Positions 31,406-62,702 of a stretch of 64,000 nucleotides of DNA are shown in pieces. The DNA comes from Patescibacteria group bacterium. GTDB lineage: Bacteria; Patescibacteriota; Patescibacteriia; Patescibacteriales; UBA12465. The stretch spans positions 51,440 to 115,439 of the forward strand of contig JBMOHE010000001.1 of assembly GCA_049318005.1 (NCBI GenBank). Reading direction: 5' to 3'. Positions within the stretch are counted from its first letter, which is position 1. Each line of letters begins with the position of its first letter. Under the pieces are notes generated by a model. The model searched no databases, was not told the origin of the DNA, and worked only from the letters and a program-made list of their open reading frames with translations. A program made the position numbers and the translations under genes.

Positions 31406-33016
31406 TTATTTTCTTAAAGAAAACTCACAACCACAAAATTTCTGTCTATAAATTCCTAACTTCTTAGCCAGTTCTTGAGATTTTCGATAAGCATCATTAG
31501 CCTGAAAATCTAAATTTAAAAATTTAATTTTATTCTTTTTAGCTAACTTAGTACAAATTTTATTGATAATTTTTTTATCTTTATAAGGGCTAACCAGCAA
31601 GCTCGTACTAAAATAAGTAAATTCTTTTTGTTTAGCTAGCTCGGCTGTTTGAATTAAGCGATTATAATAACATATCTGACAACGCTGACCGCGCTCTTTA
31701 TCATTTTCATGACCATTAACTAAGCTCAACCAGCCCGAATGGTCATAAGGCTCAACAATCAAAGGAATATTATATTTTTCAGCCATTAATTTTACGGCCT
31801 CCAATCTTTTGTCATACTCCTCTTGAGAGTTTAAATTTGGATTTAAAAAATACCAGGTTAAATCATAGCTTGGAAGTAAAATATCGCGACTAATAAAAGT
31901 GCTACAAGGGGCGCAGCAAATATGAAGTAATAAACTTGGTTTTTTATCACTCTCTTTATTATTTTCTTTATTTTTTCTCTCCTGACTAAGATCAAATAAA
32001 TAAAAACCGCCGACCATTAGAAACATTAAAACTAAAAGAAAAATAAGGACTAAAAATTTTCCTCGACTTTGAAGAAACAAACCGCTTAAACCAAAGACTA
32101 GCGAAAAAAAATAAAAAATTAAAACGGTCTTTTTTTGACTGAGGCCAAGGCCTAGAAGTCGATGGTGAAGATGTTTTTTGTCAGCGAAACGAAAAGGATT
32201 CTTCCCTTTTAATAAACGTCTAATAATTGTCCAGGCGACATCCAAAATCGGAATTCCCATTACTAAGAGCGCGATCGCAATTTTTCCGCCGGAAATTATT
32301 GCTAAGACGCCAAGAATATAACCAAGCAAGAGTGAACCGCCTTCCCCAAGAAATATTTTAGCGGGGTTCCAGTTAAAAATTAAAAAACCAGATACTGAAC
32401 CAACTAGCAAAATAGAAGCAAACGCGATATCCGGTTGAAAGTAACGAGTAGTAAGCGTAAACAAAAAAATTACTAAGCCGCCAATAGCGCTAACCCCCGA
32501 GACTAATCCATCAACCCCATCTAATAACTTAGTCGTATACATCATTCCTAAGAGCCAAATAGAAACTAAAAGCGGTCCAATAAAAAAGAATGATTTCAAA
32601 TATAAATAGCCACCAAAAGGATTAGTTATTTTATCTATCCCAACTCCACCTAAAATTAAAATAATAATCGCTATTAATGGAAAAATTATTTGTAGCTTTG
32701 GTGATAAATTATATTTATCATCAAGCGTTCCGCCAATAACAATGATTAAAGCTCCCAAAAAAAATGAAATTAGATGGGTTATGCGCAAATTACCAGCTAA
32801 AAAATAAGAAGAAAAGCTAAATAACAAAATAAAGTAAGCCAAAAAAATAGCGACCCCTCCTAACAGAGGGATCGGCTCTTTGTGAATTTTTCGACTCACT
32901 TCATTATCCTTATCAGGCAAATCAACAATCTTAAAAACTAAAGCAATTTTTTTGATTGCTAAAGTTAAGATTGCTGATAATATTAAACTGGCTAAAAAAA
33001 TAAAAAAATAAAACAT
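31406..33016 (-). CDS. fusion protein: WecA/MraY-like polyprenyl-phosphate sugar-1-P transferase (GT4) + QueH (DUF208) epoxyqueuosine reductase domain
   Basis: N-terminal ~340 aa: KIHKEPIPLLGGVAIF, LDDKYNLSPKLQ, LLDGVDGLVSG, FLGEGGSLLLGY. C-terminal ~180 aa: LLLHICCAPCS, ERGQRCQICYYNRL, GIYRQKFCGCEFS. One uninterrupted frame. Confidence 0.75.
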   Translation of the reverse strand: MFYFFIFLASLILSAILTLAIKKIALVFKIVDLPDKDNEVSRKIHKEPIPLLGGVAIFLAYFILLFSFSSYFLAGNLRITHLISFFLGALIIVIGGTLDDKYNLSPKLQIIFPLIAIIILILGGVGIDKITNPFGGYLYLKSFFFIGPLLVSIWLLGMMYTTKLLDGVDGLVSGVSAIGGLVIFLFTLTTRYFQPDIAFASILLVGSVSGFLIFNWNPAKIFLGEGGSLLLGYILGVLAIISGGKIAIALLVMGIPILDVAWTIIRRLLKGKNPFRFADKKHLHHRLLGLGLSQKKTVLIFYFFSLVFGLSGLFLQSRGKFLVLIFLLVLMFLMVGGFYLFDLSQERKNKENNKESDKKPSLLLHICCAPCSTFISRDILLPSYDLTWYFLNPNLNSQEEYDKRLEAVKLMAEKYNIPLIVEPYDHSGWLSLVNGHENDKERGQRCQICYYNRLIQTAELAKQKEFTYFSTSLLVSPYKDKKIINKICTKLAKKNKIKFLNLDFQANDAYRKSQELAKKLGIYRQKFCGCEFSLRK

Positions 33017-33019
33017 AAC

Positions 33020-35713
33020 TTATAAAATAGAGGCCTTTTCAACTTCAATCTTCGCCCGAGAATTAATCACAACCGTATCACGACGTTTTAGCTCCCCACT
33101 TAAGATTAAATTAGCTATACTATCCTCAACTTTATCTTGAAGTAATCTTCTTAGCGGTCTAGCGCCAAACTTAGGGTCGTAACCTTCATGAGCCAAAATT
33201 AAAACACCATCTTTATCTGCCTTTAAATTTATACCCTTATCGCCTAAATTCTTTTTAATTTTTTTAAGCATTAAAGTCGCAACTGATAAAACATCATTTT
33301 CCGTTAATGGTCTAAACACAATGATACCATCAAACCTATTAATTAATTCCGGACGCATGTATTTATTTAACTGGTTGTCGATTAACTCTTGCTTAATCAA
33401 ATTAATATTAGTATTTGCTTTAATTTGATCTTGAATATAAACAGCCCCAATGTTAGAGGTTGCAATTATAATTGATTCAGTAAAACTGATTGTCTTTCCC
33501 TGCCCATCGGTTAAACGACCATCATCGAGTAGTTGTAAAAAAAGATTTAAAATATCAGGATGAGCTTTTTCGATTTCATCTAATAAAATCAAAGCAAACG
33601 GTTTTTTTCTAACCGCCTCAGTTAAATAACCCATAGTCCCGTCACTATCGCCAATCATTTTTTTAATACTATCTGGATGCTGATATTCACTCATATCAAT
33701 TCTAACTAAATAGTCCTCATCGCCAAAATAAACCTCGGACACCGCTTTGGCTAATTCAGTTTTACCGACACCGGTTGGACCAAGAAATAAGAAACTGGCA
33801 ATTGGCCTGGTTCCTTCTTTAAGCTGAGCTCTCGCTCGACGCAAACTAGAGGAAACAGCTTTAACTGCTTCTTCTTGCCCAATTAAACGTTTATGAATTT
33901 CTGTTTCTAAACCTAATAGTTTTTTACTTTCATTAACCGTTACCTTGCTCGCTGGAATTCCTGTGATTTCTCCAACTGCGGCTGCAACTTCATCCTGACT
34001 ACAAAAGCATTTAGCTGGATCGTTTTTAGAATTTTTTGCCGTAATTAAAACCGCCTTCTCGAGCAAATCAATCGCTTTTAGCGGCAAGCATCTATCATGA
34101 AGATAGCGTTCTGACATTTTAACTGATTGCTCTAAAGCGCTGTAAACAATAAAAACATCATATCTTGACTCAAGCATCGCAACTTTACTTTCTAAAATTT
34201 GAACCGCTTCATTATATTCTGGTTCCTTAATGCCTATTGTTGTAAACACTGTTCCTAAAGATTTATTTTCAATATATTTATCATAGTTTTCCGTGGTTAC
34301 CGAAGCTAAACAAATTAAATGATTGCGACTTAAAGCTTCAGCTAAAACGTCAGATAGGTCCATACTCTCTTTACTACCGGCAGTAATTCCAATTAGATTT
34401 TCAACATTATCAATATATAAAATAATATTTCGTGATCGATTAATTTCGCTAATCGCAATTAATAATTTTTCTTCAGCCCCTGATGCGTCAGAACCACTAA
34501 TTAAACGGGAAACATCTAGTTCAACTAAGCGTTTATCTTTTAAAAATTTAGGTACATTTTCTTCAACCATTAGCTGGGCCAAGCCATTGATAATAGTGCT
34601 CTTACCTATTCCGCTCGGACCGACTAAAAGAATTCCATTGTGTCCTCCCTCAAGATTTTCAAAAATAGAAATAATTTCATTTTGACGTCCAACGCAAATA
34701 TCATTTGCTCCATACTTAGACTGGATTGTTAAATCGTTAGAAAAACGATCAAGGCTAGGAGTTGCAATCGCCGTATAAGCTCTATTCATCCCCGTACTTG
34801 GCTTAAATAAAGCTAACTGACGATTAGCCTTATAACTATCAAGCATTTTTTTATTTACCCTCAACCATTCGACCGTATTTATAATTTTGTTTTCATCAAG
34901 CTCTAGTTCATAGAGTATTTCCGCTAATTTTGCATCTTTCAGGTAGCAAAAGGAAACTAAATTTAAAACATCAACGCTCTCAGAATTTAAATTATAAGCT
35001 TCAACAAAAGCTAAAACAAAAACCTCTCCTAAAGCAGGGCTCAAAGCACTACCTTTAGTTTTTTTAACATCTTGTGGTGCCGCCAAACGACGATCAAGTA
35101 ACTCAATTAATTTCTTAGCATCGATATTTAAACGAATGAAAAGAGTTTTAATTTCTTTGCACTTTAAAATAGAACGGAACAAATGAATTATGGTTACCTC
35201 TTCCTGGTTTAAGCGATTAGCTAAAAGATAAGCATCTTCAATCGCTTTTAAAGACACATCATTAAAAGATTTAGCGATATTATATTTCTTTGGTTTTAAA
35301 CTTTTTTTGCCATTGCTTGAAAAGGTTTTATAATTAATTCTCTTGCAGCCCGCCCTAGCTTCACTCTTTTTATAAAATAAGAATAAGTCAAACCAAAGAG
35401 AAAAAACAAAAATTAAAATAAGGGGGTCACTTTTACTCCAAAAAAATAGAATATGAAACGGATTAGCAATTAAATCAACCTGATTATAAAAAATCCAAAA
35501 ACCGAAAGCTGCCCAACCAGCAAAAATAATTATCCAAGTAATAAATTCTAATAATCTTTCGGCATTTTTTTTACTTCTCTCGAGAACAATAATTGATTTT
35601 TTTAAATTTCCATCCCAATGCAAAAAGCGCCCTAAAAACCAGGCGCCAAAAATTTTTCCACTGTCATCAGGGCTAAAAATAATTTCACTAGGAGTTGTTT
35701 TTATGTTAAGCAT
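33020..35713 (-). CDS. membrane-anchored two-AAA Clp/Hsp100-family ATPase, no M-domain, degenerate first AAA module
   Basis: N-terminal ~110 aa carry hydrophobic helices, followed by two Clp_N-like repeats. D1 has Walker A GPSGIGKST, but ILYIDNVENL replaces [10 protein letters not shown] and SLGTVFT replaces LERRFQ. D2 is canonical ([31 protein letters not shown]). Confidence 0.8.
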   Translation of the reverse strand: MLNIKTTPSEIIFSPDDSGKIFGAWFLGRFLHWDGNLKKSIIVLERSKKNAERLLEFITWIIIFAGWAAFGFWIFYNQVDLIANPFHILFFWSKSDPLILIFVFSLWFDLFLFYKKSEARAGCKRINYKTFSSNGKKSLKPKKYNIAKSFNDVSLKAIEDAYLLANRLNQEEVTIIHLFRSILKCKEIKTLFIRLNIDAKKLIELLDRRLAAPQDVKKTKGSALSPALGEVFVLAFVEAYNLNSESVDVLNLVSFCYLKDAKLAEILYELELDENKIINTVEWLRVNKKMLDSYKANRQLALFKPSTGMNRAYTAIATPSLDRFSNDLTIQSKYGANDICVGRQNEIISIFENLEGGHNGILLVGPSGIGKSTIINGLAQLMVEENVPKFLKDKRLVELDVSRLISGSDASGAEEKLLIAISEINRSRNIILYIDNVENLIGITAGSKESMDLSDVLAEALSRNHLICLASVTTENYDKYIENKSLGTVFTTIGIKEPEYNEAVQILESKVAMLESRYDVFIVYSALEQSVKMSERYLHDRCLPLKAIDLLEKAVLITAKNSKNDPAKCFCSQDEVAAAVGEITGIPASKVTVNESKKLLGLETEIHKRLIGQEEAVKAVSSSLRRARAQLKEGTRPIASFLFLGPTGVGKTELAKAVSEVYFGDEDYLVRIDMSEYQHPDSIKKMIGDSDGTMGYLTEAVRKKPFALILLDEIEKAHPDILNLFLQLLDDGRLTDGQGKTISFTESIIIATSNIGAVYIQDQIKANTNINLIKQELIDNQLNKYMRPELINRFDGIIVFRPLTENDVLSVATLMLKKIKKNLGDKGINLKADKDGVLILAHEGYDPKFGARPLRRLLQDKVEDSIANLILSGELKRRDTVVINSRAKIEVEKASIL

Positions 35714-35722
35714 ATTATTTAA

Positions 35723-36091
35723 CTATTTCAAAATCTGAAAAAATAAAGCGAAAGTTAATAACAATGGAACTATTAGCCACAAAACTAAAATTATAAAACA
35801 AATAAATACCCAAATTAACAACGTAAAACCGCGGAATATAACCTGAATTAAACGAACAAAAAAACTAATAAATCTTCCCGCCCAATCTGATTGACCATAC
35901 ATTGGAACAAAAATATTTTTTGCCCACACAGAGAATCCCAGGGATTTTTCTTGATTACTTAAAAAAATAAATATATTTTTGAAAAAACGGAAAAAGCCGA
36001 CGCTATACCACCAGATAGGAAAATATACTAACTCTAAAATAAGAGAAATAATAATTTTCCCACCGTAACTTAAAAAATTATGTTGAAACAT
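35723..36091 (-). CDS. small polytopic membrane protein, first gene of the Clp-paralog operon
   Basis: 122 aa with 3-4 TM helices. The stop lies 10 nt before the Clp-paralog start. Confidence 0.45.
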   Translation of the reverse strand: MFQHNFLSYGGKIIISLILELVYFPIWWYSVGFFRFFKNIFIFLSNQEKSLGFSVWAKNIFVPMYGQSDWAGRFISFFVRLIQVIFRGFTLLIWVFICFIILVLWLIVPLLLTFALFFQILK

Positions 36092-36894: not shown

Positions 36895-39537
36895 ATGTTT
36901 AATAAATTTACGGACAAATCGCAAGAAGCCATTATTAACTCCCAATTAATTGCTAGTTCATATGGCCAAGCTAATATTGAAGCTCTTCATATTCTTCTTT
37001 CCCTTCTTGAGCAGAACGAAAGTTTAATCAAGCCAATTTTGGAAAAAATGAAAATTGACCCCGAAATGATTGAGGACGTCGTCGCTAAAGAATTAGAAAA
37101 ATTACCAAGTACAAAAATAAAACCAAATGAGGGCCCAGTCCAGGCAGTCTCCGGAACAGCTGAAACGGCCATGATTCTAGAACGTGCCCAGAAAGAAGCC
37201 GATGGCATGAACGATGAATTTATTTCAACCGAACACATACTCCTGGCTCTAATTGGTGTTAAATCTCCAGCTCAAAACGTCCTTCTTAATTTTCAAGTTG
37301 ACTATAAGACTGTTAAAGAAATTCTTAAAGAGCTTCGCGGTAGCCAGCCAATAACTGACCAATTTCCTGAAAATAAATATAAAGTTTTAGAAAAATACAC
37401 AACCAACTTAACCGAACTAGCTCGTCAGGAGAAGCTTGACCCGGTTATTGGTCGTGATTTAGAAATTCGTCGCATCATGCAGGTTCTTCTTCGTCGCACA
37501 AAAAATAATCCAGTTTTAATTGGCGAGGCCGGAACTGGAAAAACTGCGATTGTTGAAGGACTGGCACAAAGAATTATTGCCGGAGATGTGCCAGACAATT
37601 TAAAAAATAAAGAAGTCGTAACCCTCGATCTTGGTGCATTAGTTGCGGGCGCAAAATTCCGCGGTGAATTTGAGGATAGATTAAAAGCAGTTTTAAAAGA
37701 AGTTAAGTCTCAAAACGGAAGAATTATTTTGTTCATTGATGAACTTCACACTTTAATCGGTGCTGGTGCCTCCGAAGGTTCTATGGATGCTTCAAATATG
37801 TTAAAACCAGCGCTTGCTCGAGGCGAGCTCAGAACTATAGGCGCAACAACTACTAAAGAATATCAAAAATATATTGAAAAAGATGCGGCCCTTGAAAGAC
37901 GTTTTCAACCAATTATGGTTAACGAACCAAGTATTGAAGATACAATCTCAATGCTTAGAGGTTTAAAAGAAAAATACGAGGTTCATCATGGAGTTAGAAT
38001 TACTGATAACGCCGTTATTGCGGCTGCTAAATTATCAAGTCGCTATATTAGTGATAGATTTTTACCAGACAAAGCAGTTGACCTAATTGACGAAGCAACT
38101 TCTTCCCTGCGCATGGAAATTGATTCTATGCCTGACGAGCTAGACCAACTAAAAAGAAAAATCAATCAACTTGAATTAAATAAGGCCGGAATAATGACGA
38201 CTGATAAAAAATCTAATAAATTAAGATCAGTTAACCAAGAGCTAGCTAAGCTAAAAGAAACAGCCAACCAACTTGAACTCCACTGGAATAATGAAAAAAA
38301 TATTATTTCTCAAATCAGAGATTCAAAAAAGACAATTGAAGATTTGAAAATTAAAGCCGAGATTACCCAGCGTCAAGGAGCTGACTTAACTGAAGTTGCT
38401 AAAATAAAATACGGCCTAATACCTGAACTTGAAAATAAAATAAAAAAACTTCAAGATGAACTTGTTAAAATTCAAAAGAAGGGTCAAAGAATATTGAAAG
38501 AAGAAGTTGATGAAGAAGATATTGCTAAGGTAATCGCGCGCTGGACAGGTATTCCAGTTAATCGCATGCTTCAAGATGAGATAAGAAAACTAAGCGAGGC
38601 TGAAAATGAACTAAACAAAGAAGTCGTCGGTCAAGACGAGGCAATTAAAGCTGTGGCTAATGCAATTCGTCGCTCTCGGGCTGGAATTAATGAAGAAAAA
38701 AAACCAATCGGTTCATTTTTGTTTGTTGGTCCAACTGGGGTCGGCAAAACAGAGCTTGCTAAAAATTTAGCTAATTTCATGTTTGATGATGAAAAATCTT
38801 TAATTCGTTTAGACATGAGCGAATTCATGGAAAAACACTCAGTCGCCAAACTAATCGGCTCCCCTCCGGGATATGTCGGTCATGATGACGGCGGCCAATT
38901 AACTGATAAGGTTAGACGCCATCCTTATAGCGTTGTTTTATTTGACGAAATTGAAAAAGCCCACCCCGACATGTTTAATATGTTACTTCAAATTCTTGAC
39001 GATGGACGTTTAACTGATTCCAAGGGCCGAACTGTTAATTTTAAAAACACAATTATTATCATGACCTCTAATTTAGGCAATGAAATAATTAAACAATACT
39101 CAATCGGCTTTTCAGACGGTAGCGATAAAAAAGAAGTGGCTCAAATGCGCAGCGATGAAATGAAAGAAAAAATTGATAAAATTTTAAAAACTCATTTTAA
39201 ATTAGAGTTTTTAAATAGAATAGACGAGATCGTGCTATTTAGAAGTCTGACTCCGGCCGCACTTGAAAAAATTGTTGATTTAGAATTAATTAAAGTTGAA
39301 AAACGTCTCAACAATAAAAACATTACCCTAAGAATCAGTCCAAAGATTAAAAAGATGTTAGCTGAGAAAGGATATGATATTACTTACGGCGCCAGACCAC
39401 TAAAAAGAATTATCCAAACCATGATTCTTGATGAACTAGCCTTAGAAATTATTGAAGGTAAGGTTAAAGAGGGGGATAAAGTTAAAATTGAACTTGAAAC
39501 TAAAGATAAAGTTATAATTAGCGTAACCAAAAAATAA
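36895..39537 (+). CDS. clpB: chaperone ClpB
   Basis: Two canonical AAA modules (GEAGTGKTA / [10 protein letters not shown] / LERRFQ; [13 protein letters not shown] / [11 protein letters not shown]) separated by a long coiled-coil M-domain. 880 aa. Confidence 0.95.
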
Positions 39538-44381: not shown

Positions 44382-44601
44382 CTAATTAAAAAGTGCTCAG
44401 CGTTAGCTGGGCATTTTTTAATTAGACGGCGTTAGCCGAGGGGAATCGAACGGGTGGCAACGAGCTTAGCCGAAGGTCAGCAGACCGAGGCGTAGCGAGT
44501 GCCGACAAAAGCGAGCTGGCGCAGCTTTTGGCGCCACCCCTGGACAACGAAAGAACGAGCGACGGCGAGTGATTGAGGCGGAATTCCCCTAGGGACTACT
44601 A
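44376..44601 (+). repeat. left 226-bp direct repeat (attL-like), starts in the last 6 nt of tRNA-Glu
   Basis: GGACTACTAATTAAAAAGTGCTCAGCG...GAGGCGGAATTCCCCTAGGGACTACTA. I compared it base by base with 53815-54040 and found no difference. Confidence 0.85.
44388..44419 (+). terminator. tRNA-Glu terminator hairpin (inside the direct repeat; second copy at 53827-53858)
   Basis: AGTGCTCAGC-GTTA-GCTGGGCATT followed by TTTT. Its two G.U pairs form only on the plus strand. Confidence 0.6.
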
Positions 44602-46084
44602 TCGGAGAATTAGCACTTGCTAGTTCTCTTTTGTTTTGTAAAATTAGTGAAATTTTAGGTGTTTGATTTATTGAAAAATTGAAAGTTGGTTTTTCGGTAA
44701 AAATCAAACTCTGTAATTTAAGCTTATCTTGATAATCGGCTTTTTTATATAAAGCCGGAAGATTACTTAACACTTTAAAGACCTTATCTACTTCTTTAGT
44801 AATATTAAAATTCAAGTTAGGCTGATCGTAAACGATAGCCTGTTGATTTGAAATAGTGTTTTTGATTTTTTCCATCTCGTCTTTAAAATCTTCATCATCT
44901 AATAATTCTTTTTTCTTCATTTCAATTAGCTTGGCTTTTTCGTTTTGTAGTTCTGTTAATTTTTCTTTGGCTAATTTAATTTTATCAACTGATAAACTAC
45001 TAATATCTTTTATTACACTTTGCAAAACTTTTTTATAAACCATTAAAGTCTTTTCGCTTGGTGTTATTTTCATAAGGTAATCAAAAAACTCTCCCTCTAA
45101 CTTATCTTTAGAGATTGATTTTAAGCCTTTGCAGTCCTTGTTATAGCATTTATAGAACGGATAGAGCTTTCCGCTTTTACTTTTTGACATGCAGGCAGTT
45201 ATTGGACGATTACAATGAGGGCACAGTATAAAATGACGGAGCGGAAAAGTTTCATTAGGCGTACTAGCTGAAATATTATCGCCCTTGTTTCCGGTTTTAA
45301 TAAGTCTTTGGCATTTATAGAAAGTTGATTCGTCTATTAATGGTTTATGGGTGCCTTGATATTCTTCGCCTTTGACGGTCATAACTCCTAAATAGAATTT
45401 CTCGGTTAATATTTTAAATAGAGTTTGGCTAGTTAACTCTTTGCTCTTCCATGATTTGAATCCGGCTTTAATCATTAGCTGTCTAATCTCTTCCATTCTA
45501 TAAGCACCACTAGAGAATTTATTAAAAGCCATTTGAATAATCTCAGCTCTTGGTTTATCTATCGTTATAACGGCTCCATTTTGACCGTCTCGGCTATTTA
45601 TATAACCTAGTGGTGCTTTATAACACCAGATGCCTTGTTTAATTTTCTCAAGCATGCAAGAAGATACTCTTTCGCTCCTTACATCATTATCAAATTGAGC
45701 AAATGACGCCATAATAGTGCCGATTAGTTTTCCACTTGGTGTTTTATCAACTGTTTCAGTGGCAGAGATAAACTTAATTTGTAATTCTTCAAGAGCCATC
45801 AAAATAGTAGCGTAGTCTTTAACGTTTCTTGAGAGTCTATCTATTTTATAAACAATGACTGAATCAATATTTCTATAGTTCTTCTGACAATAACTTAATA
45901 ATTCCTGCAGTCCTTTGCGGTTAGTGGTTTTAGCTGATACACCATCGTCATGAAATAGTTTTGTGATTTCAATATCATGGTTTAAGGCATATTCTAAACA
46001 AGCCTTTTTCTGTTGCTCAAGACTGACTCCATTTTGAGCTTGGTCTTCGGTTGAAACTCGGTAATATATAATTCCTTTTGACAT
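44477..46084 (-). CDS. large serine recombinase
   Basis: I prefer the ATG at 46084 (MSKGIIYYRVSTEDQ, catalytic Ser). Resolvase domain (DRLSRN), recombinase domain, Zn ribbon CPHCNRP...YKCYNKDCKG and a coiled-coil tail. The last ~42 codons are encoded inside the direct repeat. Confidence 0.9.
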   Translation of the reverse strand: MSKGIIYYRVSTEDQAQNGVSLEQQKKACLEYALNHDIEITKLFHDDGVSAKTTNRKGLQELLSYCQKNYRNIDSVIVYKIDRLSRNVKDYATILMALEELQIKFISATETVDKTPSGKLIGTIMASFAQFDNDVRSERVSSCMLEKIKQGIWCYKAPLGYINSRDGQNGAVITIDKPRAEIIQMAFNKFSSGAYRMEEIRQLMIKAGFKSWKSKELTSQTLFKILTEKFYLGVMTVKGEEYQGTHKPLIDESTFYKCQRLIKTGNKGDNISASTPNETFPLRHFILCPHCNRPITACMSKSKSGKLYPFYKCYNKDCKGLKSISKDKLEGEFFDYLMKITPSEKTLMVYKKVLQSVIKDISSLSVDKIKLAKEKLTELQNEKAKLIEMKKKELLDDEDFKDEMEKIKNTISNQQAIVYDQPNLNFNITKEVDKVFKVLSNLPALYKKADYQDKLKLQSLIFTEKPTFNFSINQTPKISLILQNKRELASANSPIVVPRGIPPQSLAVARSFVVQGWRQKLRQLAFVGTRYASVC

Positions 46085-46260
46085 AGAATTAAGGTTAATA
46101 AATAAAAAGAAAGCGGTGAAACTGTCGGACACAACTTAGCAAAAAGCCTTGTTGAAACAGCCACCGCTTTCTTTATATCAAAACGACCTTAGTCGCTTGG
46201 ATGTAAAATATAGTGACTTCTTGCTTTATAAGTTGTGTCCATTAGAGATATTAGCATATA

Positions 46261-58517: not shown

Positions 58518-61500
58518 TTAAGGGCTCCAGCTAATCATAACTTCATTAACTTGAGGCGTATACTCTCCGCCATTAGAGCAATCCGAGGAACAAATTCTTA
58601 TTTTATATCTAAAATATCTCTTATTATTATGGTTATTATAGCAACCAATTGATGTTGGAAAATCAGGATCGTTGGAATACCAATCATCTGCATCTCCGGT
58701 GCAGACTGTTCCGAAATAATTCCAAGGACCGCTAGGATTATCTGAGCTGGCTATTTGAAATAATATTATGCCCTGGTTAAGTGCTGGGCCTCCATAATTT
58801 CCTCGCCACATAATTGAGTTATAAGCGGGACCATCGGCGACTCCAGTTGTGTCAAAAATAATTGAAGTTAATTCTCCGTAAGCTGGGTATCCAACTACGA
58901 CACCACTAGGTATTTTCCACGCCACATAATAATAAACACCAGAGCTTGAATTAACCGCAGTGTCAATTCCAAGTTGAAAGCCATTAGTTATAAAAGCTTT
59001 TATCATGCCAGCTGTCAGCGGGTAGGCTTCAAAAGATTGAGTTAAGTTACCAACTAACGTTATTGGTCTTTGGACGGCAGCGATAGCTGTATTTCTTTTA
59101 ATCCAAACTAGATCCGGATCAAAGCCAGGATCAGTGATACTTAAATTATCAACGCCAGTTCCTGTGTATTTTCCAACTTTAAAATTAGCACTATTTTTAA
59201 AGCCGAAAAAATAATAATAAAATCCGAAGCTATTAGTATTTGAACTGAGTCCCACCTGAAAACCATTAGCACTAAAACTTTGCAAACTATTAAGAAAATC
59301 AGCCCTACTTGAAAAAAAACTACTATTATTAATACCGTGACTTGACGTTCTAAAGCTGCTACGAGTTGCAGTGGGTCCGCCCACAACCACCATATCAGCT
59401 TGAAATGGAAAACGAGAAATTAATTTAGTGTTGTAGGAACCATAATAAGCGCCAATATAAAAATCACTAGCTCCGGAATTTTTTTCTGGGTTCCATGCAT
59501 TACCGAATGCCTGCCAGTGATAAACAGTTCCGGCTGTATTTGTAGTTACATGATTATAAACAGTAAAACCATCTGAATTAATAGACGTTACAGCGCCAGC
59601 ATAAGAAGAATTAACGGAAAAATCAAGAGTAACATCACCACCAATTAACGAGGTTCTAAAAACACTAGACTGAGCTTGATCCGATCTTACGATCACTAAA
59701 TCGGGCTTGAAATCTAAACCGGTAATATTTAAGTATTGCCCAGTACCAGTATAAGTGCCTTCAGCCATTTTATAAGTGCCGCTTGAATTGCGCGTATCTA
59801 TTGCTCCTCCAAAAGCAACATAATAAATAATATTTCCAGAACCATTAGAAGTTGAATTAATTCCAACCTGAAAACCATCGGTTTGAAGAGCTTGGATAGA
59901 GTCAACTAAATTAGCGGTAGCCGCAAAATAACTAGAACTATCTCCATACGATTCATCGGTACTAAAAACCCCAGAAACTGCAGTGGCCGCATTAGCATTT
60001 TTCAAAAATACAAAATCAGGCACAAAACCAACTCCAGTTATATTTCTGTTATCAGTGGCGTTCCCTGTATAAGTGCCAACATTAACTGAACCGGCGACTG
60101 ATTTAAAAGCGGCAAAATAATATACTCCACCTGAAGCACTGTTAGTGGTCCCAACTGAAAAGCCAGTTGCATCAAGCGTTGTAAAGAGAGCTCCGGCCGT
60201 ATTCTGAGTTGTGGCCATAAAATATTGGCCGGCATTCGCAGGCATAGCCGACGAACGCCAATTGGCCGCTACGGCCGTACTCTGTTTAACCATTACCAGA
60301 TTTGGTTGAAAGCCTACTGGAACGGCTTTGGCCGCGCCAGTGCCAGTATATGAACCAACACAAAATGTTCCAGTGGCTGAGCAGTCTGAACCGGCAAAAG
60401 CTGTCCAGGTATAACCAACATTAAGTGTGTTAGTGATTGTACCAACAACAGAAAATCCGTCGCTATTAATTACTATAGACGCTCCAGAATTATCAGCAGT
60501 TGCGGAACCTAAGTAAGCAGTATTTAAAGTTGGCATAGCACTAGTTTTAAAAACTCCAGCACTAGCCGTCGTGTTTGATTTAATAATAATCATTTCTGGT
60601 TTAAAGCCAAGGCCGGAAATAGATTTAGCGCCACCGTTACCAACATAATAACCTGTTTGAATTTTATAAGAAGGCGGAGTTGTGTTTTGAGTAGAATTTT
60701 TTTTCCAAGCTACATAAATATAAACACCAGTTGCCAGGTTAACTTCAGTTCCTGTTCCGAGTTGAAAACCGTTAGTTACAAAAGCTTTAATTTTTCCCGC
60801 TGCTTGAGCGCTTGCCGTAAAATATTGTGTCAAATCTCCTGTCAGAGTTCTAGGTCTTTGGACACCAGCGACATTCGTATTTCTTTTAATCCAAACTAAG
60901 TCAGGATCAAAGCCGGGATCAGTAATACTTAAATTATTAACTCCATTTCCTGTGTATTTCCCGACTTTAAAATTAGTTCCATTTTTAAAGCCAAAGTAGA
61001 AAAACATCCCGGCTGCACTATTAACACTGGTGCTGTTCCCTGTCTGAAAACCATCAGCACTTAAAGATTGAATATGGTTGGCGACGTCAGCCGTCGCTCC
61101 ATAAGTACTAGTTAAGTCGCCCACATGACTTGAGGTTCTAAAAACACCAACTACGGATGCGCTAGAAACTTTTACGGCCAACATGTCCGCTTGAAATGGT
61201 AAGCGAGTAATGTTTCTATTATCTAGCCCGTTTCCATAATAAGCTCCAATATAAAAATCACCGGCTCCAGAATTTGTTTCCGGACTCCAAGCATTTCCAA
61301 ATGCCTGCCAATGATAAACAGTTCCAACCGTATTTGTGGTTACATGATTATAAACAGTAAAGCCATCGGGATTAATAGAGCTAATCGCACCAATAATATT
61401 ACCAGTAGCCGAATCTAAATAAGCGGTTGAATCTCCGCCCATTAGTGATGTTCTAAATACACCAACTACCGCCGTACTTGCTTTTACAATCACTAAGTCT

Positions 61501-62702
61501 GGCTTAAAATCTAAGCCAGTAATATTTAAATACTGCCCCGTACCAGTATAAGAACCTTCGGCCATTTGATAAGCACCACTAGCGTTTCTAGTATTATTTG
61601 TTCCGCCAAAAGCAGCGTAATATATAATATTTCCAGAACCATTAGAAGTTGAATTAATTCCAACCTGAAAACCATCGGTTTGAAGAGCTTGGATAGAGTC
61701 AACTAAATTAGCGGTAGCCGCAAAATAACTAGAACTATCTCCATACGATTCATCGGTACTAAAAACCCCAGAAACTGCAGTGGCCGCATTAGCATTTTTC
61801 AAAAATACAAAATCAGGCACAAAACCAACTCCAGTTATATTTCTGTTATCAGTGGCGTTCCCTGTATAAGTGCCAACATTAACTGAACCGGCGACTGATT
61901 TAAAAGCGGCAAAATAATATACTCCACCTGAAGCACTGTTAGTGGTCCCAACTGAAAAGCCAGTTGCATCAAGCGTTGTAAAGAGAGCTCCGGCCGTATT
62001 CTGAGTTGTGGCCATAAAATATTGGCCGGCATTCGCAGGCATAGCCGACGAACGCCAATTGGCCGCTACGGCCGTACTCTGTTTAACCATTACCAGATTT
62101 GGTTGAAAGCCTACTGGAACGGCTTTGGCCGCGCCAGTGCCAGTATATGAACCAACACAAAATGTTCCAGTGGCTGAGCAGTCTGAACCGGCAAAAGCTG
62201 TCCAGGTATATCTTACGTTATTTGTGTTACCGACAGCTGTCGTAACACTAAATCCATCACTATTAATAATGATTAGGCCAGTTGTGTTGTCGGCTGTTGC
62301 TACGCCTAAATAAGCAGTATTTAAAGATGGCATAGCGCTAGTTTTGATAACTGCGCTTCCGGCCGATGTATTTGATTTCAAAATAACCATTTCTGGCTTA
62401 AATCCCAAACCACTAATTGATTTAACGCCACCGTTACCGATATAATAACCTGTTTGGATTTTATACGTAGCGGCTTCAGCCTTATTAACACTAGGAGTTA
62501 AAAGATTGGCCATTTTTTTATCAATTACATTTGAGTCATTGAGAGACAAATATAATGAATCAACTATATTTCCATCACTTATAGTCTTCGCAATTTTTTT
62601 CAAAAGCATCTCAGAAGGAAATCCGGAAATAAAAAAGACTAGCATTAAAAAAATTCCTAATGTTTTACGAAAGAAAATTCTATTTTTGTGAAATATAATC
62701 AT
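58518..62702 (-). CDS. giant (1394 aa) membrane-anchored repeat protein: 12 x ~100-aa modules + Cys-rich C-terminal domain
   Basis: Single long ORF with N-terminal TM helix GIFLMLVFFISGF. Modules have the recurring signature Y-x-G-x-G...I-[TS]-G-[LV]-G-F-x-P-[DE]-x-V-x-[IV]-K...T-S...D-G-F-x-V...Y-[YHI]-[WYF]-x-A-F. The last ~125 aa carry 6 Cys. Confidence 0.8.
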   Translation of the reverse strand: MIIFHKNRIFFRKTLGIFLMLVFFISGFPSEMLLKKIAKTISDGNIVDSLYLSLNDSNVIDKKMANLLTPSVNKAEAATYKIQTGYYIGNGGVKSISGLGFKPEMVILKSNTSAGSAVIKTSAMPSLNTAYLGVATADNTTGLIIINSDGFSVTTAVGNTNNVRYTWTAFAGSDCSATGTFCVGSYTGTGAAKAVPVGFQPNLVMVKQSTAVAANWRSSAMPANAGQYFMATTQNTAGALFTTLDATGFSVGTTNSASGGVYYFAAFKSVAGSVNVGTYTGNATDNRNITGVGFVPDFVFLKNANAATAVSGVFSTDESYGDSSSYFAATANLVDSIQALQTDGFQVGINSTSNGSGNIIYYAAFGGTNNTRNASGAYQMAEGSYTGTGQYLNITGLDFKPDLVIVKASTAVVGVFRTSLMGGDSTAYLDSATGNIIGAISSINPDGFTVYNHVTTNTVGTVYHWQAFGNAWSPETNSGAGDFYIGAYYGNGLDNRNITRLPFQADMLAVKVSSASVVGVFRTSSHVGDLTSTYGATADVANHIQSLSADGFQTGNSTSVNSAAGMFFYFGFKNGTNFKVGKYTGNGVNNLSITDPGFDPDLVWIKRNTNVAGVQRPRTLTGDLTQYFTASAQAAGKIKAFVTNGFQLGTGTEVNLATGVYIYVAWKKNSTQNTTPPSYKIQTGYYVGNGGAKSISGLGFKPEMIIIKSNTTASAGVFKTSAMPTLNTAYLGSATADNSGASIVINSDGFSVVGTITNTLNVGYTWTAFAGSDCSATGTFCVGSYTGTGAAKAVPVGFQPNLVMVKQSTAVAANWRSSAMPANAGQYFMATTQNTAGALFTTLDATGFSVGTTNSASGGVYYFAAFKSVAGSVNVGTYTGNATDNRNITGVGFVPDFVFLKNANAATAVSGVFSTDESYGDSSSYFAATANLVDSIQALQTDGFQVGINSTSNGSGNIIYYVAFGGAIDTRNSSGTYKMAEGTYTGTGQYLNITGLDFKPDLVIVRSDQAQSSVFRTSLIGGDVTLDFSVNSSYAGAVTSINSDGFTVYNHVTTNTAGTVYHWQAFGNAWNPEKNSGASDFYIGAYYGSYNTKLISRFPFQADMVVVGGPTATRSSFRTSSHGINNSSFFSSRADFLNSLQSFSANGFQVGLSSNTNSFGFYYYFFGFKNSANFKVGKYTGTGVDNLSITDPGFDPDLVWIKRNTAIAAVQRPITLVGNLTQSFEAYPLTAGMIKAFITNGFQLGIDTAVNSSSGVYYYVAWKIPSGVVVGYPAYGELTSIIFDTTGVADGPAYNSIMWRGNYGGPALNQGIILFQIASSDNPSGPWNYFGTVCTGDADDWYSNDPDFPTSIGCYNNHNNKRYFRYKIRICSSDCSNGGEYTPQVNEVMISWSP
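58898..62471 (-). repeat. two tandem 1797-bp (599-codon) super-repeats inside the giant gene
   Basis: aa ~78-676 align with aa ~677-1275 (ATYKIQTGYYIGNGG.. versus PSYKIQTGYYVGNGG..). The track's identical shadow ORFs 60038..60235 and 61835..62032 give the 1797-bp period. 61624-62210 is identical to 59827-60413. Confidence 0.85.

Follow-up and report, generated by a model that had tools for sequence, protein, structure and literature searches.

A membrane-anchored Clp/Hsp100 paralog with a degenerate first AAA+ module and its small membrane partner form a conserved two-gene module in Patescibacteria

The Clp/Hsp100 family is very well studied, and its textbook members ClpA, ClpB, ClpC, ClpE, ClpL, ClpV, ClpK/G, Hsp104 and Skd3 stand for tyrosine-paddle threading with two active rings. 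To our knowledge, all characterised threading Hsp100s depend on the pore-loop tyrosines, and we know of no loss of the aromatic pore loops in FtsH, Msp1/ATAD1, Skd3 or HSP101-PTEX, of which HSP101 and Skd3 are Hsp100 members. The torsins are Clp/Hsp100-related and membrane-associated, lack aromatic pore-loop residues and have a dedicated membrane-spanning partner (LAP1/LULL1); they consist of a single lumenal AAA+ module whose arginine finger is supplied by the partner. In NSF and p97, one ring (D2 and D1, respectively) binds nucleotide for assembly and the other ring is the motor. Here we describe a two-gene module, consisting of a small membrane protein and a membrane-anchored Clp/Hsp100 ATPase, that is conserved across Patescibacteria. 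The ATPase family is new in that no paper or curated family describing it was found; the full-text literature gave no account of a membrane-anchored Clp in Patescibacteria, and the paper that names clpC/clpP with the candidate phyla radiation meant host genes.

The two genes lie in the window, i.e. the whole 64-kb stretch of DNA that was analysed, and both open reading frames were present as given in the initial annotation, with 897 and 122 codons for amino acids and a 9-nt gap between them (Table 1). A canonical ClpB gene is located at 36895..39537 (+) of the window. The gap is likewise only a few nucleotides in several other loci, and the two genes overlap in locus L003. The ATPase gene is probably translationally coupled to the upstream partner gene. 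When we examined the co-conservation of the pair, which had been proposed to form an operon, every one of the 75 testable genomes had the ATPase gene next after the partner gene on the same strand, and the adjacency was also found at six deeply diverged loci; partner homologues and the ATPase occur on the same contigs, with direct adjacency in the fetched loci. The 122-aa protein is an obligate partner of the ATPase. Promoter and terminator scans of the upstream intergenic region gave scores no better than those of shuffled sequence. Clustered at 50% identity, the ATPase family falls into at least 150 clusters, and a scan of species genomes with an alignment of five sequences as query located the partner gene in at least 437 of them. 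What had been described as a single odd paralog is, together with its obligate small partner, a large, vertically inherited Patescibacteria family. The motif counts below refer to 120 close homologues and to 104 diverged or distant representatives.

Table 1. Features of the two-gene module, with residue numbers of the encoded protein and positions in the window.
Feature	Residues	Position	Strand	Basis
Partner gene, 122-aa membrane protein		35723..36091	(-)	ORF list
ATPase gene, 897-aa membrane-anchored class-I Clp/Hsp100 paralog		33020..35713	(-)	ORF list; Pfam, NCBIfam, alignment and model
Cytoplasmic beta-meander, SPDDSGKIFGAWFLGRFLHW	10-35	35609..35686	(-)	Strands at aa 13-32 in model
TM helix 1, FITWIIIFAGWAAFGFWIFY	~55-76	35486..35551	(-)	Hydropathy maximum 1.98; modelled helix 39-76
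TM helix 2, DPLILIFVFSLWFDLFLFY	~96-114	35372..35428	(-)	Hydropathy 1.85; modelled helix 97-122
Divergent Clp_N domain, 2 x 4 helices	146-303	34805..35278	(-)	BLASTP, ClpA profile, model
D1 AAA+ module with lid	325-565	34019..34741	(-)	AAA_lid_9 and AAA matches; ClpC/ClpB alignments
D1 Walker A GPSGIGKST, kept	365-373	34595..34621	(-)	Lys in 114/120 close homologues, 90/104 representatives
D1 pore loop SGSDASGAEE, replacing AGxKYRGEFE	406-415	34469..34498	(-)	Aromatic in 8/104 representatives
D1 Walker B ILYIDN, catalytic Glu to Asn	431-436	34406..34423	(-)	Asn in 117/120; DE in 1/104 representatives
D1 Arg-finger position G-T-V, replacing E-R-R	487-489	34247..34255	(-)	No Arg in 120 close homologues; RR in 9/104
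D2 AAA+ module (AAA_2)	600-800	33314..33916	(-)	AAA_2 at 8.7e-54
D2 pore loop G-D-S-D-G-T-M-G-Y, pore Tyr to Thr	688-696	33626..33652	(-)	Alignments
ClpB_D2-small domain, sensor 2 GARPLRR	803-883	33065..33307	(-)	PF10431 at 5.8e-22; R852 invariant

The partner was modelled by AlphaFold2 (pLDDT 88.6) as two long helices, aa 6-51 and aa 70-121, which are joined by the conserved loop KNIFVPMYGQSDWAGR, and its hydrophobic stretches are at aa 12-34 and aa 88-120. Neither Pfam, NCBIfam nor PADLOC matched it to a family, and Foldseek of the model against the PDB returned nothing significant (best E = 4). We found 196 partner homologues. The protein is homologous to the gene product encoded 5' of the ATPase gene in the 8 fetched loci, of which 6 are distant, and all nine small proteins (window plus 8 loci) are homologous to one another and share the invariant motifs PxWWY..G and FxP..G.

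The ATPase carries the domains of class I Clp/Hsp100 proteins, with matches to AAA_2 (8.7e-54), ClpB_D2-small (5.8e-22), AAA_lid_9 (4.4e-13) and AAA (9e-19, in two stretches), and Foldseek of its model recovered only ClpC and ClpB as top matches. Its scores stay far short of the NCBIfam cut-offs. For ClpA, TIGR02639 scored 473 against a cut-off of 993 and NF008263 scored 329 against 1350; for ClpB, TIGR03346 reached 545 bits against 1232, in two stretches; and for ClpV (TssH), TIGR03345 reached 428 against 885, with housekeeping and envelope genes and no T6SS genes as neighbours. An FtsH-type membrane AAA+ protease was rejected because no Peptidase_M41 or other protease domain was among the Pfam matches, and in PADLOC the ATPase gave only generic AAA_2-type matches (PDC-M37B, DolB) and the partner none, in a housekeeping context, and a reading as an anti-phage defence system was dropped on these results.

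According to the initial annotation, the protein begins with hydrophobic helices. Two TM segments were indeed supported by hydropathy and by the model, but about 50 cytoplasmic residues come first. Kyte-Doolittle values in 19-residue windows exceeded the threshold of 1.6 at about aa 55-76 and aa 96-114, whereas no window of the neighbouring ClpB did so, and the AlphaFold2 model shows helices at aa 39-76 and aa 97-122 with pLDDT 76-89. Since a hydrophobic N-terminal segment is present in 119 of 120 close homologues and in 103 of 104 distant representatives, it is not a chance feature. The Lys/Arg-rich stretch after TM helix 2, read from the sequence, implies an N-in/C-in hairpin, and with this predicted topology the N-domain and both AAA+ modules would face the cytoplasm. 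Pfam and NCBIfam assigned aa 1-140 to no family. Ahead of TM1, 78 of 106 sequences contain a CxxC motif, in two copies in 76 of these, and a set of 40 representatives shows 90% or higher conservation of the four Cys; family members gave sub-threshold Pfam matches to DnaJ_CXXCXGXG and Anti-TRAP (E = 1.5e-4 to 8.5e-6). In the window ATPase the first zinc knuckle is deleted and the second is replaced by SPDDSGKI, with loss of the Cys ligands. Judged from the alignment of the window N-terminus to the second knuckle, the beta-meander at aa 10-35 is what remains of a CxxCxGxG zinc finger of the DnaJ type, and the sequence patterns put this putative finger as ancestral in the ATPase family, present in most members and lost in the clade of the window. 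The Clp_N assignment that follows the hairpin is weaker than those of the other domains: Pfam Clp_N matched one repeat only, below threshold (E = 0.0044, 17.6 bits against a cut-off of 20.7). Residues 150-300 align with ClpB residues 5-150 by BLASTP and the ClpA profile alignment starts at aa 156; in addition, the AlphaFold2 model has eight helices in this region and homologues carry PF02861.

The initial annotation had also described D1 as keeping Walker A while losing the Walker-B Glu and the arginine-finger pair, and it had noted the missing M-domain and ClpP loop; these points all held. GPSGIGKST is retained as Walker A. In both the phmmer alignment to ClpC and the BLASTP alignment to the window ClpB, ILYIDNVENL sits on Walker B and LGTVF on LERRF unshifted, so that neither alignment shows a displaced Walker-B Glu or Arg finger. 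The second acidic position of Walker B is never Glu among the 120 close homologues. Two other residues were considered as a rescue of D1, namely a Glu two residues downstream (DNxE), which is present in 119 of 120 homologues of the window's clade, and a Lys/Arg at position 484, which is conserved in this clade and not family-wide. The DNxE Glu could in principle restore D1 hydrolysis in the clade of the window, and as both residues are clade-restricted we treat them as a caveat only. Family-wide, E, P or K often stands in place of the Walker-B Asp and 14 of 104 representatives lack the Walker A Lys, and D1 nucleotide binding across the family is thus uncertain on these sequences. The kept nucleotide-binding motifs and the lost catalytic motifs support a D1 that is predicted to be hydrolysis-dead.

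In D2, both Walker motifs (A, GPTGVGKT; B, LLDEIE) are intact, as are sensor 1 (TSN) and the Arg finger (R793); together with sensor 2 they are invariant in 120 of 120 close homologues, and Walker A and B, sensor 1 and the Arg finger are present in at least 101 of 104 representatives. These counts support a D2 that would be catalytically intact and under strong purifying selection; its pLDDT in the AlphaFold2 model is low (40-65). As for the M-domain, ClpB residues 403-537 and ClpC residues 407-460 have no counterpart in the ATPase, and without it there would be no ClpB-type coupling to DnaK. The stretch from the sensor-1 TSN to the Arg finger (NRxD) is 44 aa long and contains no [ILVMFA]G[FL] motif in 120 of 120 close homologues, whereas in the neighbouring ClpB it has 54 aa including IGF; the ClpC loop region falls in a gap of the ClpC-ATPase alignment. 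With no ClpP-docking loop, the ATPase could not feed ClpP in the canonical way. No ClpP was matched by tblastn with the E. coli ClpP query in the 64-kb window or the 89 fetched loci. The conserved IGF loop of the neighbouring soluble ClpB and its absence from the ATPase argue for a division of labour, in which the soluble paralog would dock ClpP and the membrane paralog would not.

The pore loop of D2 is 5 aa shorter than the canonical GAPPGYVGxxxGG, and GYVG is changed to G-T-M-G in the window ATPase and to G-T-L-G in most of its clade; among the 104 representatives, G[YFW]xG occurs in 7 and GYxG in 3. Because the pore aromatics on which characterised threading Hsp100s depend are missing from both D1 and D2, processive threading is doubtful. 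The initial annotation had not noticed this loss in D2, and of its D2-only membrane machine the tether, the dead D1, the intact D2, the missing M-domain and ClpP loop and the partner stood, while the unfoldase/extractase reading, as stated, did not. A modified form of that reading is the alternative that survives best, and we consider it possible, if rather unlikely: a membrane-protein extractase or unfoldase would thread processively by D2 only with an aliphatic Thr-Leu-Gly grip, and its clients would refold or pass to an FtsH-like membrane protease. The fully catalytic D2 and a membrane anchoring analogous to that of FtsH and Msp1 are consistent with it, as are the pore-loop Leu conserved in 115 of 120 members of the window's clade and the few family members that keep GYxG, and non-aromatic pore loops such as that of p97 D1 can touch substrate. 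However, the aromatic is missing in 97 of 104 representatives, and loop length and sequence vary between clades, unlike a conserved grip; the D1 pore loop is lost too, the protein has neither a protease domain nor a ClpP loop, and none of the neighbouring genes encodes a protease.

Across loci the module sits beside rplU, secE-nusG-rplKA, yidC-rnpA, tgt and a WecA-like GT4, a vertically inherited housekeeping context that speaks for the remodeller proposed below. The GT4 gene lies directly 3' of the ATPase gene in the window, in L001 and L003 and in the deeply diverged L004 and L009. YkuD L,D-transpeptidase, PMT_2 and beta-propeller genes extend the same co-directional array. The GT4 gene and this array would fit a factor that uses ATP to assemble or regulate one specific polytopic enzyme or surface structure of the envelope, e.g. 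the downstream WecA/TagO-like transferase, rather than a general chaperone. We regard this as improbable, since the GT4 linkage is missing in L005-L008, since the small gene is the only one that is invariably linked, and since gene order in streamlined genomes may reflect ancestral synteny. That the ATPase is a decaying paralog, a pseudo-enzyme or scaffold without ATP-dependent function, is suggested by the degenerate D1 motifs and both degenerate pore loops, but is highly improbable given the invariant D2 catalytic residues, the 64-80% full-length conservation within the window's clade and the retention of the gene in ~1 Mb genomes across deep lineages.

We favour, with moderate confidence, a ClpP-independent hexameric remodeller on the cytoplasmic side of the membrane, in which D1 is the scaffold and D2 the motor and which works with the small hairpin protein. 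Six ATPase subunits would assemble at the inner membrane face; D1 would hold the hexamer together as a static ring stabilised by nucleotide, much as D2 does in NSF, and D2 would be the sole motor. The partner would add TM helices together with a stalk on the cytoplasmic side, and through the conserved tip of this stalk it may touch the ATPase and serve as its anchor or adaptor. In most family members the DnaJ-type zinc finger at the N-terminus might first catch the clients together with the Clp_N domain, and ATP hydrolysis in D2 would then remodel or release membrane-proximal protein clients, acting via non-aromatic pore loops or surface contacts and not via Tyr-paddle threading into a protease. 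A bolder version has, in our estimate, little chance of being right: six ATPase and six partner hairpins, with ~24 TM helices, would build a ring in the membrane that shares the axis of the hexamer. The result would be an ATP-driven machine, specific to Patescibacteria, that conducts or extracts proteins and engages clients without aromatic pore loops. If so, it would be a bacterial counterpart of HSP101-PTEX or of a retrotranslocon, and such client engagement would be mechanistically new for Hsp100.

This large conserved branch departs from several Hsp100 rules together, being membrane-integral with an obligate small membrane partner and a predicted dead first ring, lacking aromatic pore loops, M-domain and ClpP loop, and having an ancestral DnaJ-type zinc finger. 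Its retention in ~1 Mb genomes of a vast uncultivated radiation suggests that the proteostasis of the membrane or envelope is its core task in the epibiotic Patescibacteria. Databases label the family 'ClpC' or 'AAA family ATPase', names that hide the architecture and wrongly imply ClpP-dependent proteolysis. Characterisation of the ATPase would show if Hsp100 work is possible in the absence of pore tyrosines, and would establish a new type of AAA+ machine at the membrane.

When we compared the module with known systems, the closest were ClpC and ClpA, which share their domain order (Clp_N, D1 with AAA_lid_9, D2 of the AAA_2 type, D2-small) with the ATPase and match it best in sequence (436 bits for S. 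aureus ClpC) and in fold; ClpA also has no M-domain. Unlike them, the ATPase has a TM hairpin, an N-terminal zinc-finger remnant and a D1 predicted to be hydrolysis-dead, and it has neither the pore tyrosines nor the IGL/VGF ClpP loop. With ClpB/Hsp104 it shares a D2 that is 40% identical to that of the neighbouring ClpB, a predicted independence of ClpP and a short, ClpB-length segment past sensor 1, but it is membrane-bound and lacks the coiled-coil M-domain, an active D1 and the pore Tyr. Like the cysteine-rich domain of DnaJ, Anti-TRAP and BSD2, most family members have two CxxCxGxG knuckles, which open the protein; here they would build a single zinc centre ahead of a TM hairpin on an Hsp100, and in the window the ligands are lost. 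FtsH, Msp1/ATAD1, Skd3 and Plasmodium HSP101-PTEX also place an AAA+ ring at a membrane through N-terminal TM segments or a partner. FtsH differs by its protease domain, Skd3 is D2-only with ankyrin repeats, and PTEX has a separate pore protein unrelated to the 122-aa hairpin. The D1, which keeps Walker A and not the catalytic residues, resembles NSF D2 and p97 D1, although these belong to another AAA+ clade and the inactive ring here is an Hsp100 D1, variably degenerate across the family. Finally, the torsins with LAP1/LULL1 are a functional analogy only, as a membrane ATPase without pore aromatics that has a dedicated partner, whereas the present ATPase has two modules and its own D2 Arg finger and sensor 2.

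The 897-aa ATPase was matched by Pfam to AAA_2 (8.7e-54), ClpB_D2-small, AAA_lid_9 and two AAA stretches, and its NCBIfam scores for ClpB (545 bits), ClpA (473) and ClpV (428) each fell far under the cut-off; the neighbouring ClpB scored 1202 bits with the ClpB model (TIGR03346). We aligned D1, the first AAA+ module, by phmmer against the PDB, where S. aureus ClpC was the best match, and by BLASTP against the neighbouring ClpB. Both alignments retain Walker A (GPSGIGKST), set ILYIDN against ILFIDE, which replaces the Walker-B Glu with Asn, and set LGTVF against LERRF, by which the Arg-finger pair is lost; the two agree, and neither motif is shifted. The D1 pore loop reads SGSDASGAEE compared with the canonical AGxKYRGEFE. 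The M-domain is missing, as residues 403-537 of ClpB and 407-460 of ClpC are unmatched, and a gap lies opposite the ClpP loop of ClpC after sensor 1 (TSN) of the second module, D2. The segment from TSN to the Arg finger is 44 aa long throughout the 120 close homologues, and [ILVMFA]G[FL] is missing from it in every one. Two N-terminal segments (about aa 55-76 and 96-114) exceed a Kyte-Doolittle value of 1.6, and ClpB has none. Two Clp_N-like repeats had been proposed, for which the support is weaker: Pfam found a single weak repeat (E = 0.0044), while BLASTP, the ClpA profile and an eight-helix model favour a putative, divergent Clp_N domain. Based on these checks of D1, the M-domain, the ClpP loop, the hydrophobic segments and Clp_N, we took the initial annotation of a membrane-anchored Clp/Hsp100 paralog with an apparently inactive D1 as confirmed.

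The ATPase is not the single odd paralog it had been taken for, but a member of a family. A first database search returned the 120 close homologues (full-length, 64-100% identity), whose sources are Candidatus Falkowbacteria or unclassified Patescibacteria and whose usual label is 'ClpC', and an exhaustive phmmer search with aa 1-560 against 1.84 billion cluster representatives gave 980 matches at E <= 1e-30. In the best 150 of these (27-61% identity), the alignment usually begins at query residue 15-30, so that conservation extends to the N-terminal region. Members with a source name are all Patescibacteria (Falkowbacteria, Uhrbacteria, Kerfeldbacteria and the Parcubacteria group), and none of the sources names the family separately; NCBI labels the identical protein, on a 198-kb contig, 'MAG: AAA family ATPase [Patescibacteria group bacterium]'.

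Among the close homologues, the second Walker-B residue of D1 is Asn in 117 of 120 and Glu in none, and Arg is absent from the D1 finger positions in all of them. When we examined 104 diverged full-length representatives, the D1 Walker A Lys was present in 90, the Walker-B DE in one, the RR finger in nine and the pore-loop aromatic residue in eight; 103 carried a hydrophobic segment ahead of the N-domain. Walker A, the Walker B DE, sensor 1, Arg finger R793 and sensor 2 of D2 are invariant in the close homologues (120/120), and each D2 catalytic residue occurs in at least 101 of the 104 representatives. AlphaFold2 confidence for D2 was low; judged by its residues, D2 clearly reads as a live ATPase. 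In the window's clade, a Glu stands at +2 of Walker B (DNxE) in 119 of 120 proteins and a Lys/Arg is conserved at position 484. These residues might conceivably take part in catalysis by D1; they are confined to this clade and are not family features.

The D2 pore loop of the ATPase, GDSDGTMGYLTE, is 5 aa shorter than the canonical GAPPGYVGxxxGG(Q/Y)LTE and has Thr at the pore-Tyr position, which in the window's clade is T91/A16/N6 and is followed by Leu in 115 of 120. The Tyr of its GYLTE corresponds, in the alignment to the window's ClpB, to the GG(Y/Q)LTE position of ordinary ClpBs and not to the pore Tyr, an assignment that also leans on the E. coli ClpB sequence. The loop differs in length and sequence across the representatives, with G[YFW]xG in 7 of 104 and GYxG in 3. 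From the changes in both pore loops, it follows that the aromatic paddles are missing from both rings. All characterised threading Hsp100s need such paddles. The loss of the D2 pore Tyr is absent from the earlier reading, and because neither ring has the paddles, the label 'unfoldase or extractase' given there is weakened, although D2 appears catalytically live.

AlphaFold2 placed helices at residues 39-76 and 97-122 of the ATPase (pLDDT 76-89). Since the flanks of the hydrophobic segments are rich in Lys/Arg and the connecting loop is not, the charge pattern indicates a predicted N-in/C-in hairpin with cytoplasmic AAA+ modules. Of 106 sequences (the 104 representatives together with P0001 and the ClpB of the window), 78 start with CxxCxGxG ahead of the first helix, two copies being present in 76, and in a sample of 40 sequences each of the four Cys was conserved in 90% or more. 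Five such N-termini gave consistent sub-threshold matches to DnaJ_CXXCXGXG (E = 1.5e-4 to 7e-4), Anti-TRAP (down to 8.5e-6) and BSD2_CRD. This zinc finger is ancestral to the family; the window's clade has lost its first knuckle and has SPDDSGKI in place of the second, which leaves the small beta-meander modelled at aa 13-32.

The 122-aa partner matched no Pfam, NCBIfam or PADLOC family, and 196 homologues were detectable, on the same contigs as ATPase homologues. In eight loci, two from Falkowbacteria and six distant ones whose ATPases are 31-39% identical over aa 1-560, a gene of 120-156 aa lies immediately upstream of the ATPase, on the same strand, with gaps of -8 to +28 nt. All nine small proteins align and share P-x-W-W-Y-x-x-G, F-x-P-x-x-G, Ile75, Arg80 and Pro109. 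In a motif scan of GTDB representatives, one genome per species, at least 437 species genomes encoded a relative. The operon noted initially was upheld as co-conservation: an ATPase homologue lies downstream on the same strand in 75 of the 80 loci listed, and since the remaining five stop no more than 470 nt from the small gene, all 75 loci that could be judged have it (75 of 75). The partner gene is thus obligate and tightly spaced with the ATPase gene. Its AlphaFold2 model (pLDDT 88.6) has two long antiparallel helices, with the conserved loop NIFVPMYGQSD at one end and hydrophobic halves at the other, which we read as a putative two-TM hairpin with a cytoplasmic stalk; the model had no significant structural neighbour in the PDB. 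A complete genome with the module is CP066698.1 (977 kb). Many module-bearing MAG records (TPA assemblies, among L012-L085) are titled 'uncultured Gammaproteobacteria bacterium', probably a mislabel.

Coordinates of the module, its neighbours and other features in the window and in the compared loci (L001 and L003, Falkowbacteria; L009, distant family locus)
Feature	Sequence	Position	Strand	Remark
ATPase ORF, 897 aa	window	33020..35713	-	ORF list
Partner ORF, 122 aa	window	35723..36091	-	9 nt upstream of ATPase ORF
Canonical ClpB	window	36895..39537	+	divergent from ATPase/partner
IGF of ClpB (aa 737-739)	window	~39103..39111	+	in 10-aa insertion after D2 sensor 1
GT4-QueH fusion	window	31406..33016	-	directly downstream of ATPase
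GT4-QueH fusion	L001	11023..12603		directly downstream of ATPase
GT4-QueH fusion	L003	11062..12633		directly downstream of ATPase
60-aa ORF	L001	10739..10921	-	opposite strand, between ATPase and GT4-QueH
60-aa ORF	L003	10778..10960	-	opposite strand, between ATPase and GT4-QueH
Pup_ligase (PafA-like) gene, 487 aa	L009	3079..4542		directly upstream of partner/ATPase pair
Large serine recombinase	window	44477..46132	-	Resolvase, Recombinase, Zn_ribbon_recom; ~5 kb past ClpB
1394-aa protein	window	58518..62702	-	four DUF7483 stretches

In the loci compared, the partner gene is the sole universal neighbour of the ATPase. Past the ATPase, the window has an almost gapless minus-strand array encoding a WecA-like GT4-QueH fusion, a YkuD L,D-transpeptidase, a PMT_2 glycosyltransferase, a beta-propeller protein, a PDZ protein, PGK and enolase. 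The GT4, which is WecA/TagO-like and not MraY, directly follows the ATPase in the window's clade and two distant loci and is absent there in four others. The fusion joins this polyprenyl-phosphate sugar-phosphate transferase to the epoxyqueuosine reductase QueH in a single conserved protein of 523-536 aa; with tgt also close upstream of the module in the distant loci L005, L007 and L009, queuosine genes recur around it. ATPase and fusion are 3 nt apart in the window, without the 60-aa ORF of the two Falkowbacteria genomes. The pupylation-type ligase match in L009 is unexpected on a patescibacterial contig. The remaining neighbours are housekeeping genes (rplU, secE-nusG-rplKA, yidC-rnpA, tgt, mraZ-rsmH), and therefore an origin of the module in a defence system, a T6SS (ClpV) or a mobile element is unlikely. 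No protease gene lies near the ATPase, and clpP had no match in the 64-kb window or the fetched loci. Elsewhere in the window, the serine recombinase may mark an integrated element, and the ORFs near it matched no Pfam family. G+C is about 33% throughout, reaching 0.41 locally at 60-62 kb, within the gene for the 1394-aa protein, against ~0.33 elsewhere.

In the neighbouring ClpB, the M-domain is full-length. The Y[SAT]IGF of its insertion is invariant in 48 of 48 orthologues with variable flanks, and the insertion matches, position by position, the loops with which S. aureus ClpC (AGF) and the ClpC1 of M. tuberculosis and Streptomyces (LGF) dock ClpP. This protein may represent a naturally occurring 'BAP-like' ClpB that is capable of docking ClpP, which would sharpen the contrast with its loop-less membrane paralog.

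As judged from the alignments, the ATPase has a D1 with a P-loop and without catalytic residues, an intact D2, and no M-domain, ClpP loop or pore tyrosines. We suggest that it would work as a hexamer on the membrane's inner face: D1, stabilised by nucleotide, would be a static ring for assembly, and D2 would be the only motor. The partner may serve as co-anchor or adaptor through its conserved stalk tip, and clients might be captured by Clp_N and, in members that have one, the zinc finger. Membrane-proximal proteins would then be remodelled or released, not delivered to ClpP, probably without canonical threading.

Our literature searches found no description of this family. Its fold and domain order are those of a class-I Hsp100, nearest to ClpC and ClpB. 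It differs from ClpB in having no M-domain and from ClpA/C/E in having no ClpP loop and in scoring below their equivalog models, and it falls outside ClpV on that family's defining test; the catalytic D1 found throughout the family and the pore tyrosines are both missing. Torsins are Clp-like, membrane-associated proteins without the aromatic pore residue that need a dedicated membrane partner, and the ATPase/partner module may resemble them functionally. D1 might likewise be compared with the one static ring of NSF (D2) or p97 (D1), and the whole ATPase with AAA+ machines that are tethered to a membrane, among them FtsH, Msp1 and HSP101-PTEX, all of these being functional analogies and not memberships.
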